Assembly: GCA_019704295.1 (NCBI GenBank)
Contig: AP024596.1
Coordinates: 1,376,001-1,440,000 of the forward strand
Length of the DNA: 64,000 nucleotides
Source: Sulfolobales archaeon HS-7
GTDB taxonomy: Archaea > Thermoproteota > Thermoprotei_A > Sulfolobales > Sulfolobaceae
Direction: 5' to 3'
Shown piece after piece: positions 8,733-59,574 of the stretch (positions within the stretch are counted from its first letter, which is position 1; each line of letters opens with the position of its first letter). A program made the translations under genes and the position numbers. The notes below the pieces were generated by a model that ran no database searches, was not told the origin of the DNA, and saw only the letters and a program-made list of their open reading frames with translations.

Positions 8733-8893
8733 AGACACTACCTGCTTCGTCTCTGATACAGTTGTGTAAGCAGTGATGCAGAACGTTATCTCCGTGAACG
8801 TTCTGATCCCTGAGGCTTTTACGAGTTAAACCTCTTTAGACCCTGTTAAGAATTACTATCCTGATACCAAGACCCGCGTTTTCCCCTTGAAAT
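8733..8893 (-). mobile_element. degenerate copy of CT-core non-TIR mini-element (IS110-like)
   Basis: Both ends align with the copies at 52970 and 54220 (AGACACTAC...CTTCGTCTC and CGCGTTTTCCCC). Confidence 0.6.
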
Positions 8894-11745: not shown

Positions 11746-12157
11746 ATTACGCGCGTGATAAGGGTGTTTGCATCAATGAGTTCCCTCAAATTGAATGTCA
11801 CAACCCCTAGTACCTCCATGAAAGAGGCCTTTACCCCTCTAATCTTTCACTTAACAGCATTAATGATGAAATGACGTGAACAGAGCCTTCCCGAATTTAA
11901 CTTTATGTATGGAGGGGAAAATTGAAGATTATTTCGGCAGGCTCAGCATACCCTCCGTGCGGGTTGTAGAGCACAAGATCGTACTTTAAATGGTAGGATT
12001 AATTTTCATCTCCTCAGAATTACTCCCTGAACAATGTTTATGTGAGGGAGACAAAGGAGGATACATTGTTCTTTATACCCTCAAGGAAGTGAGTTCTCAT
12101 GAAATACATAAGTTATTTCCTTAACAGTTTAAATAAGTGTTTTACTTATATGAAATT

Positions 12158-13084
12158 ATGACAGAGGAGGAAGTTAAGAGAGTTTTAATGAATAATCCAG
12201 AAATAATAGCTGATGCATTGGTAGCAAAGCCCCACGTTCTGTACGAAGTACTCTCAAAACTCACTCCCTGGCAGAACCTAGCTACTAAGGATGATTTGAG
12301 GCGACTTGAGGAGAAGATGGCGACTAAGGACGACTTGAAGAACTTAGTGAGTAAGGATGATGCTAAGAACTTCGCGACTAAGGACGACTTGAAGAACTTA
12401 GTGAGTAAGGATGATGCTAAGAACTTCGCGACTAAGGACGACTTGAAGAACTTAGTGAGTAAGGATGATGCTAAGAACTTCGCGACTAAGGACGACTTGA
12501 AGAACTTAGTGAGTAAGGATGATGCTAAGAACTTCGCGACTAAGGACGACTTGAAGAACTTAGTGAGTAAGGATGATGCTAAGAACTTCGCGACTAAGGA
12601 CGACTTGAAGAACTTAGTGAGTAAGGATGATGCTAAGAACTTCGCGACTAAGGACGAACTGGAACTATCCATCAATAAGGCCGTTAGGAAGCTTGAGAAC
12701 CTAATTACGGCCCTTGGAGCGAGGTGGGGGATAATGAGTGAAGACGCCTTTAGAGAGGGCGTTAGGGAAATTCTTAAGGACACAGGTCTAAATGTAACTA
12801 GGGAGGTTCTCTACGATAGGACAGGTTATGTATTCGGCGATCCCTCTGACATAGAAATTGACGTGGTAGTTAAGAACGGAAAGGTTGTCTTAGTTGAAAT
12901 AATGTCATCATTAAAGAGGGGAGATCTGCCTATCGTCGAGAGAAAAAAGGAATTTTACGAGAGGGAGAGGAATTTGAAGGTCGATTCCCTGATAGTTGTG
13001 ACGCCGTTCATACATGACAAGTATCCAGAAAGGTTGAAGGCGTTTGCTAAGGACAGGGGAATAGAAGTAACTTATCCCGAGTGA
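12158..13084 (+). CDS. DUF3782-like coiled-coil protein with PD-(D/E)XK-type C-terminal domain
   Basis: ALGARWG..SE..FREG, EIDVVV...VEI; TTTAAATA 30 nt upstream of ATG 12158. Confidence 0.8.
   Translation: MTEEEVKRVLMNNPEIIADALVAKPHVLYEVLSKLTPWQNLATKDDLRRLEEKMATKDDLKNLVSKDDAKNFATKDDLKNLVSKDDAKNFATKDDLKNLVSKDDAKNFATKDDLKNLVSKDDAKNFATKDDLKNLVSKDDAKNFATKDDLKNLVSKDDAKNFATKDELELSINKAVRKLENLITALGARWGIMSEDAFREGVREILKDTGLNVTREVLYDRTGYVFGDPSDIEIDVVVKNGKVVLVEIMSSLKRGDLPIVERKKEFYERERNLKVDSLIVVTPFIHDKYPERLKAFAKDRGIEVTYPE
12320..12657 (+). repeat. 6 perfect 54-bp tandem repeats plus a partial copy (ATKDDLKNLVSKDDAKNF)
   Basis: Directly visible; each unit is two related 27-bp subunits. Confidence 0.97.
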
Positions 13085-13138: not shown

Positions 13139-13258
13139 CTTCCACGGGAAAACCCCTTAAAATAGGGTCGAGATATCTAATCCCACGAGGTAGTACGTGC
13201 TTCGCCTTTACCATGACCATGGAAGCAGCGAGTCTAGAACCGGCTATATCGACATCGC
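13139..13258. mobile_element. two nested fragments of the CT-core mini-element (left end on +, right part on -)
   Basis: CTTCCACGGGAAAAC at 13139; AGGTAGTAC.TGCTTCGCCT...CCATGG from 13188. Confidence 0.55.
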
Positions 13259-13512
13259 AATGAAACGCTATCTTCATTGATAACACAACTTTATTGCTCC
13301 GTAAAGCGTTTAATCGCAAATCGGTATGAGTTGCCAGAGGCTGGAAATATCAGAGATTACAAATTGACGTAGGTTTCTGCACATGTCTCTCCCATAAACG
13401 TGTTATGCGTGATCGGTGTAAGGCCCTAAGGGATAAACACAAACCCTCCCCTTTTGAGGGCCTGTAAATTTGGTATTCTAGAAACCAGTAAAACCTGGTG
13501 ATTATTATACAA

Positions 13513-25255: not shown

Positions 25256-26515
25256 TTAATCCTCAAGAACTTGAGAGGTTATTATGACAACTCCTTCTCC
25301 CTCAAGTTGTTCTTTCACGTCTTTCCTGACGTAGTTTGCAACTAAGAATAGCTTTAGAGGTTTGGAATACAGAGCGGAGAAGAGCTTTTTTCTATTGAAA
25401 ATTTGCTCTACTGCACCTTCATCCGCTAAGTTCTTTATTTCGAACACGTATACATAATCGTTAGTTTCGTAAAAGTCTACTTCAAATGACCTCCCCTTTT
25501 CTATTACTCCAACTGTGTCTATTACCTTTCCATGTTGCACCTTTTCGGGGTTAACCCCATGTAGTTCCAGTGCTTTCTTATAAAGTGAGAGCATTGTCCT
25601 CTCCATGTTCAAACCGGCTCTATTAGTGAAGCTTCCGATTTCCGTTGATAGCTTTCTTTGTTCCCAAACCAGCTCCTCTACTGCCTTTTGCAAGGAAGCG
25701 ATGGCCTCACTGTGCTTCTCTATGACCACGGAGTGCTGTTCAACCGTTCTCTGTAAGTTAGTCATTTCCCTTGTGAGGTTCTCGATAGCTACTGAGTGCT
25801 GTTCCACGGACTTTTGCAAGGAAGCGATGGCCTCACTGTGCTTCTCTATGACCACGGAGTGCTGTTCAACCGTTCTCTGTAAGTTAGTCATTTCCCTTGT
25901 GAGGTTCTCGATAGCTACTGAGTGCTGTTCAACCGTTCTCTGTAAGTTAGTCATTTCCCTTGTGAGGTTCTCGATAGCTACTGAGTGCTGTTCCACGGAC
26001 TTTTGCAAGGAAGCGATGGCCTCACTGTGCTTCTCTATGACCACGGAGTGCTGTTCAACCGTTCTCTGTAAGTTAGTCATTTCCCTTGTGAGGTTCTCGA
26101 TAGCTACTGAGTGCTGTTCCACGGACTTTTGCAAGGAAGCGATGGCCTCACTGTGCTTCTCTATGACCACGGAGTGCTGTTCAACCGTTCTCTGTAAGTT
26201 AGTCATTTCCCTTGTGAGGTTCTCGATAGCTACTGAGTGCTGTTCCACGGACTTTTGCAAGGAAGCGATGGCCTCACTGTGCTTCTCTATGACCACGGAG
26301 TGCTGTTCAACCGTTCTCTGTAAGCTTGATAAACTATCCTTAACCTCCTTCATGAATTCTCGAACAGTGTGCTCTAAGCTTATTATCGCTTGAGAGTTCT
26401 CCTCCAGTTTCTTAATTACTACTTCATCCTTTATCTTGTCCTTAACTCTATCCGCTATTATTTCAATTAATTCCGGGTTGTTAATTATCTGCCTAGTAAC
26501 GTCATTAGCTCCCAT
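25256..26515 (-). CDS. long heptad coiled-coil protein with C-terminal PD-(D/E)XK domain (DUF3782-like)
   Basis: GSFTNRAG..ME, EVDFY...VFEIK. Confidence 0.8.
   Translation of the reverse strand: MGANDVTRQIINNPELIEIIADRVKDKIKDEVVIKKLEENSQAIISLEHTVREFMKEVKDSLSSLQRTVEQHSVVIEKHSEAIASLQKSVEQHSVAIENLTREMTNLQRTVEQHSVVIEKHSEAIASLQKSVEQHSVAIENLTREMTNLQRTVEQHSVVIEKHSEAIASLQKSVEQHSVAIENLTREMTNLQRTVEQHSVAIENLTREMTNLQRTVEQHSVVIEKHSEAIASLQKSVEQHSVAIENLTREMTNLQRTVEQHSVVIEKHSEAIASLQKAVEELVWEQRKLSTEIGSFTNRAGLNMERTMLSLYKKALELHGVNPEKVQHGKVIDTVGVIEKGRSFEVDFYETNDYVYVFEIKNLADEGAVEQIFNRKKLFSALYSKPLKLFLVANYVRKDVKEQLEGEGVVIITSQVLED
25685..26324 (-). repeat. 126-bp tandem units (4 full, 1 hybrid 63-bp, 1 partial)
   Basis: Identical units encode LQRTVEQHSVVIEKHSEAIASLQKSVEQHSVAIENLTREMTN. 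Confidence 0.95.
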
Positions 26516-29629: not shown

Positions 29630-29975
29630 ATGGTAATACCGAGTCTCTCAACACAAGAACCTAGAATAAGGTATAAATTACTTTCCGTGTTGAACTTCAA
29701 GGGGAGAAAGGTAGGGGAGTGGTGAATACGCTGGTATAAGCGTGCTTGCGGAATGTGGAGAGAAATTCCTGGGAAAACGAGGTGTCGCCTCAAACCGTGA
29801 GGGACTACGCTGAGGAGCATGGAAATGAGGTGATCGAGAGGCTTCCACGGGGAAAACACGTTGCACCAGGGATGAGGATAGCTATGCCCTACGATGTTGA
29901 TGTAGGTAGCGTTCTGGACTCCCGTTACCATAGCTGTGTTAGAGGCGAAGCGTGTAGTGCCTTATAGAGGTTCGG
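29630..29975 (+). mobile_element. ISH3-family (ISC1225-like) transposase 5' remnant, interrupted by a mini-element
   Basis: YKLLSVLNFKGRK...VSPQTVRDYAEEHGNEVIERL. Confidence 0.7.
29842..29962 (+). mobile_element. 121-bp internally deleted CT-core mini-element
   Basis: CT|TCCACGGGGAAAACACG...GTTAGAGGCGAAGCGTGTAGTGC|CT. Confidence 0.8.
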
Positions 29976-32983: not shown

Positions 32984-33153
32984 AGGTGCTATATGTATCA
33001 CCTCTTACACAAGTATGGGAAAAGTGGGTTCAGATCACCCTAGATTAATGCCTAGTTTTTGAAGTTCCTAATCTCAGGCACCTTGAATCTCCTCGTTACT
33101 AAACCGTTTCAAAAGTAGTCATCCCCATTCCTACGCGTTTTCCCCGTGGGGAG
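32984..33153 (-). mobile_element. degenerate CT-core mini-element
   Basis: AGGTGCTATATG...CACCTC and ACGCGTTTTCCCCGTGGGGAG ends. Confidence 0.7.
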
Positions 33154-36355: not shown

Positions 36356-36517
36356 AGGCGCTATATGCCTCGCCTCCAACATAACTATGGGTACAACTGT
36401 CTCGAACGCTATTTACGTAAACGTCGTCCTTGCCTCTCCTGTCTTGGACAACGTGAGCCTCTCTGACTAGACCGTTGTAGGGATTTGCTATCCCTAGTAG
36501 TGTTTTCCCCGAAGAAT
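36356..36517 (-). mobile_element. degenerate CT-core mini-element
   Basis: AGGCGCTATATGCCTCGCCTCCAAC... and ATCCCTAGT..TGTTTTCCCCG ends. Confidence 0.7.
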
Positions 36518-40782: not shown

Positions 40783-42162
40783 CAGTCATGTTTCGCTAAT
40801 TTTACTAAAAATAAGACAATTTCTAAAACATAGGAAAATTCCGCTCAAAAAATAGAAATTAGCTAAATTTCCGTTGAAGTGGAGAAAGGATAGATTTTTA
40901 TCTTAGAGAAAGGCCCGTAACTTAGTTTTTACACGTATAGTAATACCTTGTGTGTTATCAGGTAGGTAGAAATGAGAACGTTGAAGTTTAAGCGAGCGAT
41001 TTCCTAAATCTAGGTATGAGGATAAGCAAACTAGGACAAGTCCCTCGCTAATGAACTTGTATTGGAGGCGTTCAAGAAGATTTCGTGTAATTCCCGCGAC
41101 GTTATCGGGAGAATTAAATCCCTCCTCCTGGGGAATAGAGGAAAGGACTACATTTCGCTTGTAAGATAAGGGAAAAAGCTAGGGGAACTATTGGGTAGAA
41201 CTTTCGAGTTCTGGGAACTCTGCTTGATCTTCTCTGAGACCGCGCTTGGTTTCGACGGGACCTTCTTGGGATTGGGAGAGAAGGAGACGGAGTAAGTGGG
41301 GGACAAACTCTTCTCGGGAAAGGTTAGATCAGCAGAACTCCTGTCTCCCGTGAGATGTAACGTGGTTACCTAATTCGCGGTTAGAGAGGATCAAAAGCCC
41401 TCTGAGTTTCTTCAAGAGTTCGTCAACAAGGCAACGCAGCACGTCAACTTGGATTACGTTGTTGCGGATGCGGGATTCCTCAACCTGGAGATCCTCAAGG
41501 AGTTACCCGCAAAAACCGTGATTAGGGGGGAGAGAATTTTAAGGGAGTCAAGGAACTCTTTGCTCAGCCCCTTACCGTGAAGTACTACAAGGTTGAGGAT
41601 AGATCTTACGTTGCCTACAGCGTGATAGAGTACAAGGGACTCTACTATTACGACGTGATTTACGTGAAACATAAGGAAAAACCAATGCAGTTCGTTTTCG
41701 TGTCCAACATTAAGGAAGAACCTTACGAGTTGGAGGAGACCTACAGGTTGAGGTGGCAAATAGAGGAGGGATTTAAGACGAGGAAGGCTAGAATAGAACT
41801 CATAAGGAGTTTGTGCAACAAGCTCTACCTGATCTACGCGCTCCTCGACACTTCCTGGAACTTGTACCTCTTCCTCTCATTTAACCTCAAGGCACCTGGA
41901 GAGAAGTCCTAGCGTTTAAACAGTTCGTCAATCTCCTCTAGGTGTTTTTAAGCTTCAGGGTGGACTACGTACCTCGCTTTGACCTCGTGAGATAAATTCA
42001 GAACTTCTTGTGTTTGCTATCATTAACTTGTAAAATATATCAGATTTTGACTAAACATATCTTATTGTTACGTCCATGGAGTTGACTTAATCCTATATTT
42101 TTATATACAAATTACACTAATAATATCTTACAAACATGAGATTTTTTTGTGAAACAAGACTG
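40783..42162 (+). mobile_element. ISH3/IS4-type (ISC1439-like) degenerate IS
   Basis: TIR CAGTCATGTTTCGC / GTGAAACAAGACTG; VVADAGF and YRLRWQIEEGFK fragments. Confidence 0.75.
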
Positions 42163-43615: not shown

Positions 43616-43877
43616 TAATAAAATGTCTAGTACGTAATTAACGTGAATACCTAGATAAAGTAAAAAGTTATAAAACACCTCTGTTTAAGATTAAATTAGT
43701 TAAATTATGTTAAGGAAAATAACATAAAATTAGTTTATCATGAGTATTTGGAAGATATCTTGAAGTTTTCGAGAATCAAGACTAGAAACGAGTTTTTCTA
43801 GCCTGATTTTAAGTGGAGATTTCAGCGTTTACTAATGGACCCAAACCACTGAGCATTGTAAGGTGGGCCCAAGAGGC
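43616..43877 (-). mobile_element. right-end fragment of ISC1290-like IS
   Basis: Aligns with 57974-58240 (AAGTGGAGATTTCAGCG, TAAAGTAAAAAGTTATAAAACAC). Confidence 0.75.
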
Positions 43878-44024
43878 GTCGCATGCTTCTCCTTTAATAC
43901 GGCTTTGGGAATAATGGGTCCAAAATGACACTTACGACAACGTCACGGTGCTTGACGTTCTTAACCTTGGACAGCTTGTGCTTCTTTATAACTAAACCCT
44001 TATACGCGCGATCTATAATAATAA

Positions 44025-45309
44025 TGTGACAGTGTCTAATATGCAATAAATGTAATCTAGTTTATTAAGTAAATTTTTATGGTAAAAATAAACACCAAGA
44101 ACTTAACTAACGGGATAATACTTAAGGGAAATTACGCCTAGGTTATACCGTGATCTACATTTATTCCGACGTAATCCCCCAAGAGTTGGGTTGGAAGAGT
44201 AAATCCCTTTTGGAGTGCGAGGAAATCCTGAGTAAGTTACAGGACGTAATTGTCAGGGAGTTCAAGGACCGCGAGTTCTCCAAGTACGAACGCGGTGTAC
44301 TTGAAGATGCTGATCGTGAGGGTGCTTTTCGGAGAGTCGTATAGGGGAGTAATTGAGCTAGCGGTTACCAATGAAGTGGTCAAGGTTTTCCTTGGCGTTA
44401 AAGATGTTCCGTCTAAGTCCTCGTTGCACTGGTTTGTGTATGAATACGACGATAGAATTAGGGATCTGCTCCTCAAGGTCTTCAGGAGATTGGAGTCGCG
44501 AGTTAAAGAGGAGCGACTTCCACCATTTCTTAGCTAAGGAGAAGTTCGGAATGCAAAGGTTGATGGACAGCTTTCCCGTGGAGCTTCCTCACGGGGAGAA
44601 GATCGTCGAAACGCACATAGAGAATCTTGTACTGGATCTCAGGGAAATTGATCCAAGAAAGAAACCTCATGAAGTACTTGCGTCTCTCGATGAGAGGAAA
44701 AGGAAGAAACTCTTCTCCCATTTCCCTGGAAATTACACGATAGTGAACACGAGGGTAGCTGGGGAAGAAGTGGGGGAAAAGCCTGTTCGGGGGGAAGTGC
44801 TTCGCCGAGATCTCCTTAAGACCCTCATGGTTTGCAAGGTTAAGATAGTTCCGGCTAAAGTTTCAACTTTAAGTCTCCTATCTGCAACGTGATCACGCTC
44901 GCGGACAGGGGGTTTTCAGAGAGAGGCAAGGTGATCAGAGTCAAGAGGGGCTTGGGAATACTGAGAGGTGGTGTAGAGTTCTTTGACACTTTCCTCAGAA
45001 CGTGAGGCCTTACGCGAGGAGCATGAGGGGATTTAACGTCTTTGCCAGCCTCTTTGGCCTGGCTTACAATATTCAGCGGTTCAGATCCGTTAAAAAGCGC
45101 TAAGATCTCCAGTTAAAACCCCGCTAGAGAAGCTCGTCCCTAGCCTTGATCCTCGAAAGTATAGAGATTAGTTGCTAGTGTACTTAATAAACTGATTTTA
45201 TATTGTTTCTTCACTAGTAATTAAACGAATTTAATTCTAAACTTACGTATTTTATAACTTTTTACTTTATCTAGTTATTCACATTAATTACACATTGGAC
45301 ACTGTCACG
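44025..45309 (+). mobile_element. ~1.28 kb IS (ISC1290-like, IS5 family by inference), frameshifted transposase
   Basis: TIR GTGACAGTGTCTAAT / ATTGGACACTGTCAC; ADRGF-containing fragments; inverted paralogue at 57974-59246. Confidence 0.85.
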
Positions 45310-45448
45310 TGATTTTCCCCTAATTTAGAAATCATCTTATCCCTGGTGAAATTGATAAAACAAGACTACCTTAAAAAAAGAATATTCCTACATTTTCTTG
45401 CTTGTTCTAATTGTTTATATAAAAAATTCCTTATAAACATAGATAATT

Positions 45449-52969: not shown

Positions 52970-53148
52970 CTTCCATGGGGAAAACGCGTACCACTAGGGA
53001 TGAGGATAGCCAGTCAATGCAAGCGTTTAGTTGCTAAGAAGTCCAAGTTGCCCAAGGCAAGAAACGCCAAGGACTAAGATGTTGATGCAAGCAGGGTTCT
53101 GGTCTTGATTTTCCCATAGCTGTGTTAGAGGCAAAGAGTGTAATGCCT
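52970..53148 (+). mobile_element. 179-bp CT-core mini-element (IS110-like)
   Basis: CT|TCCATGGGGAAAACGCGT...GTTAGAGGCAAAGAGTGTAATGC|CT. Confidence 0.8.
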
Positions 53149-53951: not shown

Positions 53952-54060
53952 GGTAAATTGTAGACGTGTTATTTAAAAACCCTACGTTTAAGAAAAGGGA
54001 CTTCAGACAAAATTTTTACTACATCATCAATTAAATAACTCTCTATCAAGCTAAAGGACA

Positions 54061-54221
54061 TGAGACAGTATTCAATGTGTAATAAATGTAATCTAGTTTA
54101 TTAAGTAAATTTTAGCGAGAAAAATAAACACCAAGAACTCAACTATAGGGATAATACTTAAGGGGGATTACGCCTAGGTTATACCATGGTCTACATATAC
54201 GATGACGTAATCTCCCAAGAG
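54061..54221 (+). mobile_element. left-end fragment of ISC1290-like IS
   Basis: Matches 44025-44185 up to ...CCCAAGAG. Confidence 0.85.
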
Positions 54222-54397
54222 GCGCTACATTCTTCGCCTCTAACATGTCTACAGGAACAGCCTGTCCAGAACGGTACCTAAATCAACGTTGTATTTCTCC
54301 ACGTTCTTACTCTTGGCAAACTTGCACCTCTTAAGACTAAACCATTATAGGGATTCGCTATCTTCATCCCTAGTGTTACGTGTTTTCCCCGTGGAAG
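54220..54397 (-). mobile_element. 178-bp CT-core mini-element
   Basis: AG|GCGCTACATTCTTCGCCTCTAAC...ACGTGTTTTCCCCGTGGA|AG. Confidence 0.8.
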
Positions 54398-54798
54398 TTC
54401 CCCTAGCTTTTCCCTTGTCTTACAAGGGATATGTAGTTCTTTCCTCTATTTCCCAAGAGGGGGGATTTAATCCTCCTAAAAACGTCAGGAGATTAGAGGA
54501 AATCTTCCTAAACGCTTTCTCCACTATTTGTAAGGGACTTGTCCCTCGTCCTGTTTTCCCGCCTACCAAGATTTGGGAAGTCCCTCGCTTAAACTTTAAC
54601 GTCCTCATTTATACCCACTTGATAGTATAGAAGGTATTACCATGCATGTAAAAACTAGGTAGTTTACCTCTCCCTTAGATAAAGGTCAATCTTTTCCTCG
54701 CTTTAGTCAAAATTTACCTAATTCCTACTCTCTTCAGCGAGATTTTCCCTTGCATTAGAAATTATCTTACTTTTAGTAAAATTGGTAAAACATGACTA
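54396..54798 (-). mobile_element. left-end fragment of ISC1439-like IS
   Basis: Reverse complement aligns with 40783-41190 (MRTLKFKR start, TIR). Confidence 0.8.
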
Positions 54799-55100
54799 TT
54801 TAAAGAGTTATAAAGCATATTTGTCTAGGATTAAATTCTCTTACCCATGTGTAAAGCGATAATATAAAATCAGTTAATTAAGCTTTATAGCAAATAATTG
54901 CTTAATTTTCGAGAATACAGGTTAAGGACGAACTTGATAACGTGATATGTTTGGGTTTACCGAGGGACATAAACCGCCTGACCTCGTAAGCCTAGTTGTC
55001 TAAGGTATTCAATCTCTTGATAATCCCCCAGATATACTCCTATTTGAGTAGTATAAGTAAGTTATTCCCAAAATTTAGTTTTTAAACTATGCTTAGTCAG
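54799..55100 (-). mobile_element. truncated ISC1290-derived MITE
   Basis: AGTTATAAA...TATAAAATCAGTT matches the right-end region; boundaries approximate. Confidence 0.55.
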
Positions 55101-57869: not shown

Positions 57870-57973
57870 CATAGTCACTAAACCAATTACATCTTATTAA
57901 TTTTATTGGAAACGGCGCAATTTCAATAAGGGGCGATTCATGAGGGAATTCAGGTTTCCTGTGGGGCCGTTCA

Positions 57974-59246
57974 CGTGACAGTGTCTAATGTGTAATTAAA
58001 GTGAATAACTAAATAAAGTAAAAAGTTATAAAACACGTAAGTCTAGAATTAAATTCGCTTAAGTACCAGTGGAGAAACAATATAAAATCAGTTTATTAAG
58101 ACCACTCGCGACTAATCTCGAAATTTTCCGATAATCAAGGCTAGGGACGAGCTTCTCTAGCGGGGTTTTAAGTGGAGATTTCAGCGCTTTCTAACGGAGC
58201 TAAACCGCTAAATATTGTAAGCCAGGCCGAGGAGGCTGGCAAAGACGTTCAATCCCCTCATGCCCCTCGCGTAAGGCCTCATGTTCTGAGGAAAGTTCCG
58301 AAGAACGCCTCCTCTCAGTATTCCCAAGCCATTCTTGACTCTGATCACCTTGCGTCTCTCGGCAAACCCCCTGTGTACGAGCGTGATCACGTTTGGCTTG
58401 ATAGGAGATTTAAAGTCGGAAACGTTAGCTGGAACTATCTTAGCCTTGCAAACCATGAGGGTCTTAAGGAGAACCCGGCGAAGCACTTGCCCCCGAACCA
58501 ATTCCCCACTTCTTTCCCCAGCTACCCTCATGTTCCCTGAGGGTGTAATTTCTCGGAAATGAGAGAAAAGTTTCTCCCTTTTCCTCTCATCGAGTGTCGC
58601 AAGTACTTCATGAGGTTTCCTCCTTGGATTAATTTCCCTGAGATCCAGTACAAGTTTCTGTGCTTTTCCACGCTCTTCTCCCCGTGAGGAGGCTCCACGG
58701 TAAAGCCATCAACCTTTGCCTTCCGAACTTCTCCTTCGCTAAGAAATGGTGGAAGTCGCTCCTCGTTAACTCGCGACTCCAATCGCCTGAAGACCTTGAG
58801 GAGCAGATCCCTAATTCTATCGTCGTATTCATACACAAACCAGTTCAAGAGGACCTCGAGGGAACCTCTTTTACGCCAAGGAAAACCTTGACCACTTCAT
58901 TGGTAACCGCTAGCACAATCACTCCCCTATACGACTCTTTGAAAAGCACTCTCACGATCATCATCTTCAAGTAGACCACGTTAGTACTTGAAGAACTTGT
59001 GATCCTTGAACTCCCTTTCAATTACGTCCTTTAACTCACTCATGATTTCCTCGCACTCCAAAAGGGATTTACTCTTTCAACCCAACTCTTGGGGGATTAC
59101 GTCGGAATAAATGTAGATCACGGTATAACCTAGGCGTAATCCCCCTTAAGTATTATCCTTCCATGTAAGTTCTTTGAATTTGTCTTTCTCATAAAAATTT
59201 AATTAATAAAGTAGATTACATTTATTGTGCATTGGACACTGTCACG
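57974..59246 (-). mobile_element. ~1.27 kb ISC1290-like IS, frameshifted
   Basis: TIR CGTGACAGTGTCTAATG / CATTGGACACTGTCACG; inverted paralogue of 44025-45309. Confidence 0.85.
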
Positions 59247-59574
59247 ATATTAATCTGTGGGTCCTCATTGTACACCTTATTAAAGATAGGGAATGTATAG
59301 TGGAGCCTCCTGTCCACATACTCTGAGAGGAGTTTAGACGCCAAACGATATTTGGATGTGTGACGCAATCACGGAACATGACCCTGATTTAGCATACATT
59401 GAGAGAGTTTTTTCAACCCGCTTTCACTACCCTAACTTAGTGCAATTCATGGGGAATCGTTAACGATAATAACTCTTCCGAGACCGACGCCATTTTGTAG
59501 TAACTATGATTGATCTTCCGCAGAATCGTTCTCTGATTTCTAAACTTTTTAACCTGGAAGATTTAATACATCAC

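Follow-up and report, generated by a model that had tools for sequence, protein, structure and literature searches.

Guide-less mini-elements in a Sulfolobales genome, very probably derived from an ISC1491-like IS110 element and mobilized in trans

The window analysed here is the whole 64,000-nt stretch from 1,376,001 to 1,440,000 of the 2,151,177-bp genome (39.6% GC). The focal mini-element (mini) is intergenic, with GT2 glycosyltransferase genes on either side, and is made up of a left-end remnant, a deletion junction, a recombinase relic and a right end (Table 1). The left-end remnant stops upstream of the bridge-RNA loops of the parental element, and the recombinase relic contains a premature stop in this copy, with coding constraint that is not significant. 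No other block of the family is as conserved as the right-end 26-mer, from TGTTAGAGGC to CT, which is retained in every derivative found; its AGGC/GCCT is able to fold across the CT core. The reconstructed target of the focal copy is ...CAAGTT-CT-TGATA, for which the genome holds no empty paralogue, and this copy lacks a 1-nt frameshift in the recombinase tail that is common to 17 of the 31 minis scored.

Table 1. Features of the focal copy and other family members in the window
Feature	Position	Strand	Description
Focal copy	52970..53148	+	~175-bp class; 179 bp including both CT cores
Left-end remnant	52970..53017	+	CT core, right-donor bases and first ~48 nt of parental left end
Deletion junction	53018..53023	+	Decayed TACAAG microhomology, common to parental left end and recombinase Y-K codons
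Recombinase relic	53018..53119	+	Last 33 codons and TAG of IS110 recombinase
Right-end 26-mer	53123..53148	+	TGTTAGAGGC through CT core
Mini copy	54220..54397	-	Member of 11-copy subfamily; rearrangement joint
Mini copy	29842..29962	+	~120-bp class (second, shared deletion); in decayed host transposase-like frame
Outer mini copy	13139..13426	+	~175-bp class, decayed; 171 bp net; interrupted by other mini
Inner mini copy	13188..13306	-	~120-bp class; 119 bp; at reverse-strand CT of outer copy's TACAAG site
Mini copy	8733..8893	-	Decayed; left core AT
Mini copy	32984..33153	-	Decayed
Mini copy	36356..36517	-	Decayed; left core AT
Orphan right end and recombinase tail	43874..44012	-	Left side cut by another IS end

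The first-pass annotation had described six end-to-end copies, and all of them were found at the coordinates first claimed (8733, 29842, 32984, 36356, 52970 and 54220). As it had also reported, CT is present at all seven right ends counted, and AT replaces it at the left ends of the copies at 8893 and 36517. What had been listed as fragments at 13139 and 13188 are actually two complete copies, one nested in the other. Two independent insertions into another family copy were observed, this one and a second at 1508262-1508460 of the genome; each used the CT on the reverse strand of the TACAAG junction site.

The ends had been described as lacking inverted repeats, which agrees with 6 matches in 25 positions (9/20 at the best offset), and the absence of a longer target-site duplication (TSD) was borne out: external direct repeats measured 0-1 nt for 41 of the 45 insertions. 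Empty sites, taken from paralogues of the rejoined flanks, carry a single CT for at least eight insertions, as had been proposed, and 14 of the 16 empty host paralogues of the 1431-bp parent show a 2-nt gap, on which grounds a 9-bp direct repeat was rejected as the boundary of this parent. Removal of the 29842 copy was said to rejoin a host transposase frame, and the rejoined peptide does align over the junction with multicopy transposase-like ORFs of relatives (~350-380 aa, 53-58% identity, one-residue gap two codons downstream); no empty paralogue of this copy was found at the DNA level. The subterminal repeat CGTGT/ACACG was seen in the 29842 copy as described, and it makes up one of two such 5-mers in the consensus, but relatives lack it and it was rejected as a hallmark of the clade.

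Insertion sites showed a biased composition downstream of the core, with a pyrimidine at +1 in 43 of 45 insertions (p=6e-9) and G at +5 in 22 of 45 (p=5e-6), giving the target consensus CT-Y-N-N-N-G. When mini flanks were compared with the four right-target guides legible in the genome, they matched at 3.07/5 positions as against 2.62/5 at random CT+Y sites (0/3000), which fits the use of borrowed guides.

Iterated nhmmer searches of the genome gave 64 matches, including about 47 end-to-end minis (~36 of ~175 bp and ~11 of ~120 bp), a family size far beyond chance; three full-length elements and some orphan ends were also among the matches. The family is old and star-like: its members are ~19% decayed from the consensus, with a mean identity of 81% to the consensus and 69% pairwise, and the closest independent pair shares 85%.

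In a BLASTN search of the genome, the two ends of the mini were found at a spacing of 1383 bp in two places and of 1431 bp in a third, defining three full-length parents (L001, L002 and L003). All three are heavily frameshifted, with many 1-6-nt deletions, and no intact helper was found in the genome. The first-pass annotation had expected a partner with a DEDD recombinase ending in the same peptide as the mini, and this was recovered: the frameshifted parent matches DEDD_Tnp_IS110 (E 2.5e-10) and Transposase_20 (E 6.9e-17), both passing the Pfam cut-offs, and its product ends in the mini peptide. Two of the parents are 98% identical and share identical frameshifts, and therefore the dead full-length form was also copied. 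Over 78 aa the parent has 73% identity to the first ORF of ISC1491, and it is 68% identical to an intact 386-aa protein of Sulfurisphaera tokodaii str. 7 (from the same family as the genome analysed here), in which the D, E, D, D and QSG motifs are present and whose closest solved relatives are those of IS621 and ISCro4 (IS621 homology, E 1e-19).

The intact element spans 1484 bp, with ~293 nt before the ATG (nt 294) and 30 nt after the stop. A long left end with a short right end is the layout of the IS110 group (PMC11208160), so that the IS110 part of the IS110/IS1111 hallmarks first invoked was retained, while the IS1111 layout, with a long right end and subterminal inverted repeats of 7-17 bp, was absent (right end ~29 nt). 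Inverted matches across the junction extend over 5-6 nt in most clade members and 10 nt in one. The right-end pattern was sought in 301 genomes of the class and is present in 15, all of them Sulfolobaceae; the others gave no match. No match was obtained with Rfam on the parent loci, with the right-end pattern in viral contigs or with the full element in plasmids, and a search for related loci in a collection of genome contigs returned just two contig-end fragments. Partners that are intact and were active recently do exist, with 15 identical ORFs in G140. The overall proposal of an IS110-derived, non-autonomous element with a CT core and neither terminal inverted repeats (TIR) nor TSD was upheld.

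In relatives, the left end folds into two loops that each contain an inner GGGG/CCCC hairpin; in the parental left end, the loops lie at about nt 92-215. Across 30 guide types from the relatives, the right guide matched its own flanks at 3.67/5 positions as compared with 1.65 after shuffling, and the left guide at 3.27/7 as compared with 2.19 (0/5000 shuffles in both cases), values that are inflated by kinship and, for the left guide, refer to the best of five offsets tried. In the 1431-bp parent, the guide CTTCAAG and the element's own CT-TGAAG site match exactly. Relatives have the right donor guide in 13/13 cases, and it covaries in three states with the start of the left end, core included. 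In this genome it is deleted in all six left ends read, namely the five parental ones and that of a guide-only element at ~979,970; the loss (L001-L005 and ~979,970) is a 5-6-nt deletion, probably due to slippage between GAG repeats. A TATA-like TTTTATAAA lies at about nt 65-72 of the left end (L038, L147), ~24 nt before the first bridge-RNA stem, suggesting a putative promoter inside the left end and not across the circle junction; this position is past the breakpoint of the mini. A separate ~290-bp repeat family with more than 20 copies (e.g. 1845137-1845426 of the genome) gave no match to an HMM of the IS110 left end, and it is therefore not the bridge RNA of the clade.

The mini consensus tracks the parental left end to about nt 50 and continues directly with the Y-K-G codons near the end of the gene. 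Because both bridge-RNA loops were lost, the mini carries no guide, contrary to the earlier suggestion that it might carry part of a guide RNA: it breaks off at ~nt 50, before the region of the loops. What it still has of the parent is ~50 nt from the start of the left end, the final 34 codons of the recombinase and a right end of 29 nt. The shared frame ending in TAG, to which the first-pass annotation had drawn attention, does correspond to the C-terminus of the parental recombinase, but without clear coding constraint.

Our best explanation is that the mini is, very probably, a non-autonomous and guide-less derivative of an ISC1491-like IS110 element of the Sulfolobaceae, which was moved in trans as a mini and then died with its helpers. 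Its breakpoints lie at two TACAAG microhomologies, one at ~nt 50 of the left end and the other in the Y-K-G codons, between which a single internal deletion would have taken place; what was removed is the recombinase gene together with both bridge-RNA loops. As the cause, a deletion driven by microhomology fits better than cleavage by the recombinase at the CT on the reverse strand of TACAAG, which predicts one junction allele where both occur. With both ends kept, excision could presumably rebuild a right-end/CT/left-end donor on a circle, by analogy with IS621 and ISPpu9/ISPpu10. The recombinase and bridge RNA of full-length or guide-only copies would then have inserted the mini in trans at CT sites specified by their guides. 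A 22-bp IS621 donor is functional with bridge RNA supplied in trans (PMC11208160), and ISPpu10 mobilizes split ends in trans (bioRxiv 10.64898/2026.03.19.712850). Amplification as minis would have been followed by the appearance of the ~120-bp class and finally by extinction together with the helpers. Against this explanation, the parents in the genome are all frameshifted and all five parental left ends lack the right donor guide.

Four characters bear on the order of these events: a junction signature common to the minis and absent from extant parents, the 1-nt frameshift of the recombinase tail, an 11-copy subfamily with 99/93 support in a tree that is mostly unresolved and whose bootstrap had not converged, and a second deletion common to ~11 copies. 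These argue that amplification came after the deletion, as minis, and mobilization in trans is strongly implied. The principal alternative is that the minis are scars formed in place, a full-length IS110 having inserted at each site and collapsed through the same microhomology, so that minis were never mobile. Some observations point that way, since the junction is a natural microhomology of which two lineages made use, one of them showing both crossover alleles, single copies with other junctions exist in the genome (104974 and 895938), and one mini shares its left-flank target site with two full-length copies. However, each of the four derived characters found only in minis would need a parallel origin, and we consider this explanation improbable, all the more so given two observations in relatives: an allele of the G131 minis that is absent from full-length copies, and a 50-bp class in which one spacer type recurs at unrelated sites in several genera.

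The genome G131, the first of these, holds a relative with ~56% identity, seven full-length copies of which were read. It also carries 19 minis of 183-184 bp that are 97% identical and have the same TACAAG junction, 12 of which follow GTGAA (GTGAA-CT site), as predicted by the parental left guide. The allele absent from the seven full-length copies is carried by 12 of 18 minis. At the junction mismatch both alleles occur (10 A, 8 G), so that either the deletion recurred in G131 or copies recombine. The relative made a 184-bp mini independently at the same microhomology, and the layout is convergent in at least two lineages. Twelve further elements of 397-398 bp (L134-L176; e.g. L142, L143, L107, L122) contain a whole bridge RNA and no gene, and both of their target guides differ; they are guide-only helpers with diversified targeting. 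A related guide-only family of 339-347 bp was found in G090, G139, G141 and G152, at the metagenome loci L069/L074 and, in this genome, at ~979,970(-). Tandem arrays with a single core occur in G131 (L134, L128, L174), combining a full element with a mini or a mini with a guide-only element, and junctions of right end, core and left end occur as such tandems. The right flanks of most G131 insertions seem to resemble palindromic ends of the IS200/IS605 type. Extra CTC or CTCCTC units were seen at the left junction of otherwise identical sites (L087 vs L091; L097 vs L098; L154, L164, L034, L007); excision at the left end's second CT and subsequent re-insertion might have left them as footprints.

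Still shorter derivatives were identified, with several forms of ~58 bp in G131 and, across the Sulfolobaceae including S. tokodaii and S. solfataricus, elements of 50-69 bp in which a spacer separates CT and ~7 nt of left-end sequence from the right-end 26-mer (loci L180-L214, L094, L123 and L145; genomes G104, G145, G142, G141, G140, G090, G136 and G131). Some of these lie at guide-matched sites, and a type of 64-69 bp has its own internal hairpin. The 50-bp class is the one whose single spacer type is found at unrelated sites in several genera. We found no description of the 50-69-bp derivatives in the papers searched.

A second alternative is that the mini was kept for a product, either a guide-like RNA or a peptide of ~57 aa that opens only across the circle junction into the recombinase tail. 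In the consensus, the circle-spanning frame is open over 57 aa, and it is open over 59 aa in 18/18 G131 minis; stops are slightly fewer than expected (12 vs 19.6, p about 0.05) and the consensus fold has z = -3.1. However, only 5 of 36 copies are intact, the synonymous fraction (0.276, compared with 0.302 in neutral simulation) indicates substitutions that look neutral, and the variants among G131 minis comprise 6 synonymous and 16 non-synonymous changes. Coding selection on the recombinase tail was rejected (third-position excess, p 0.067; synonymous fraction below neutral), as was a conserved RNA structure in the mini, for which RNAalifold found none in common; the focal copy folds no better than its shuffles. 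Moreover, both guide loops are missing from the mini and the 50-bp forms lack the tail entirely. We therefore regard retention for a product as very improbable, more so than scars formed in place.

The remaining alternative, that the mini is one of the catalogued SM/SMN MITEs of Sulfolobus and that a DDE or Y1 transposase moved it, recommends itself by the size of the mini, which resembles that of SM2 (about 185 bp), but is hardly credible given the lack of TIR and TSD, the DEDD recombinase of the partner and an S. solfataricus genome that yields right-end segments of the clade only and no end-to-end copy; as far as that genome can tell, the family is not such a MITE. SMN1 depends on ISC1733 and SM3A on ISC1058 (PMC3718332).

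Returning to the guide-less IS110 derivative, the recognition of its donor was considered in the bridge RNA of the clade. A left donor guide is present in IS621 (PMC11208158). In the parental clade, the longest matches of this canonical type before the core are 4-7 nt, as compared with ~4.7 in shuffles, i.e. at chance level, and one divergent member (L070) has a bulged near-match. The left strand of the donor loop instead shows complementarity to top-strand bases 26-27 nt inside the right end, in a motif retained by all minis, and compensatory changes between the two were seen at two positions, each in one lineage. Divergence of this motif in the minis is 7.6%, as compared with 17.4% for base-matched positions (p 0.005), whereas no conservation is seen in the bases next to the core (p 0.7-0.9). 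Using a pattern that does not require TGTTAG, we found 21 ultra-short elements in ten genomes; 20 of them keep the ~50-bp length and the TGTTAG motif, some with one or two changes, and the other has an 8-nt deletion. Tentatively, this clade may recognize its donor unlike IS621, without a canonical left guide, and the minis of 50, 120 and 180 bp could then be the minimal donor of a three-party system made up of helpers that bear the gene, guide-only elements whose target guides have diversified and passengers that have no guide. We hold this reading to be doubtful: part of the left strand may merely close an RNA stem, a bulged guide of the canonical kind is another way to read the change in L070, positions 8-9 are broken in the guide-only elements and the search by HMM may be biased towards ends that are conserved. 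Should the odd loop prove real, programmable recombinases of this class would have a new way of recognizing their donor. We rejected a K-turn-like motif at the foot of the loop, as it is not conserved in the G131, G145 and L070 members.

Among known systems, the parent clade is that of ISC1491 and its S. tokodaii relative, IS110 elements of ~1.48 kb with the same ends and CT core, whereas the mini has neither the gene nor the bridge-RNA loops; in a literature search that was incomplete, no description of a bridge RNA or of derivatives of ISC1491 was found. The parent clade resembles IS621 (PMC11208160, PMC11208158) in its CT core, long left end and two-loop RNA. As in that system, the guides for both sides of the target and the guide for the right side of the donor covary with the DNA; a left donor guide of the canonical kind, however, is lacking beside the inner hairpin. 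A functional counterpart is MITEPpu9 of ISPpu9 in Pseudomonas putida, a non-autonomous IS110 module proposed to be mobilized in trans, with which the mini shares parent-like ends, a 2-nt core and tandem placement behind full elements (PMC12288879). MITEPpu9 is bacterial, has an AG core and 8 copies and carries the Ssr9 sRNA gene (PMC12288879), while the family described here is archaeal, has ~47 copies, carries a coding relic alone and is convergent in at least two lineages. The mini is comparable to SM1-SM4 and SMN1 as a short non-autonomous element of the Sulfolobales, and to the orfB-tail MITE-like repeat of A. hospitalis in keeping the 3' end of the parental ORF (PMC3119797). Those elements are, however, of DDE or IS200/IS605 origin; none is IS110-derived and none has a reported insertion at a CT core. 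With its short and non-coding sequence, both ends of the partner and dispersed copies with a common interior, the mini is a MITE-like derivative, although it lacks the TIR and TSD of a classical MITE.

No published description of archaeal IS110 derivatives was found in an incomplete literature search. The family extends MITE-like parasitism to archaeal RNA-guided recombinases and indicates that a passenger can dispense with both the enzyme and the guide RNA. The derivatives, with a floor near 50 bp, amount to a natural series of deletions for a thermoacidophile bridge recombinase, so that the donor requirements are directly testable.

The family is dead in this genome, and its present effect is probably that of marking, and perhaps causing, rearrangement joints. 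About ten minis are flanked by repeats in such a way that the left and right flanks are contiguous in no paralogue. The left flank of the 54220 copy equals a target site in one host IS, and its right flank equals a site in another. Two decayed IS families are joined there (window 54060-54800; 40785-42162; 44019-45312; 57971-59252), and one of these hosts is an IS of ~1.4 kb with a DDE_Tnp_1 remnant and ~15 copies, which was hit by members of this family at four different sites. Such joints could have been made either by the recombinase or by homologous recombination between copies. Apart from these elements, tandem arrays were observed inside ORFs of the window, with a period of 63 nt at 25546-26412 (ORFs 25256-26515/25605-26393) and of 27 nt at 12258-12743 (ORF 12137-13084).
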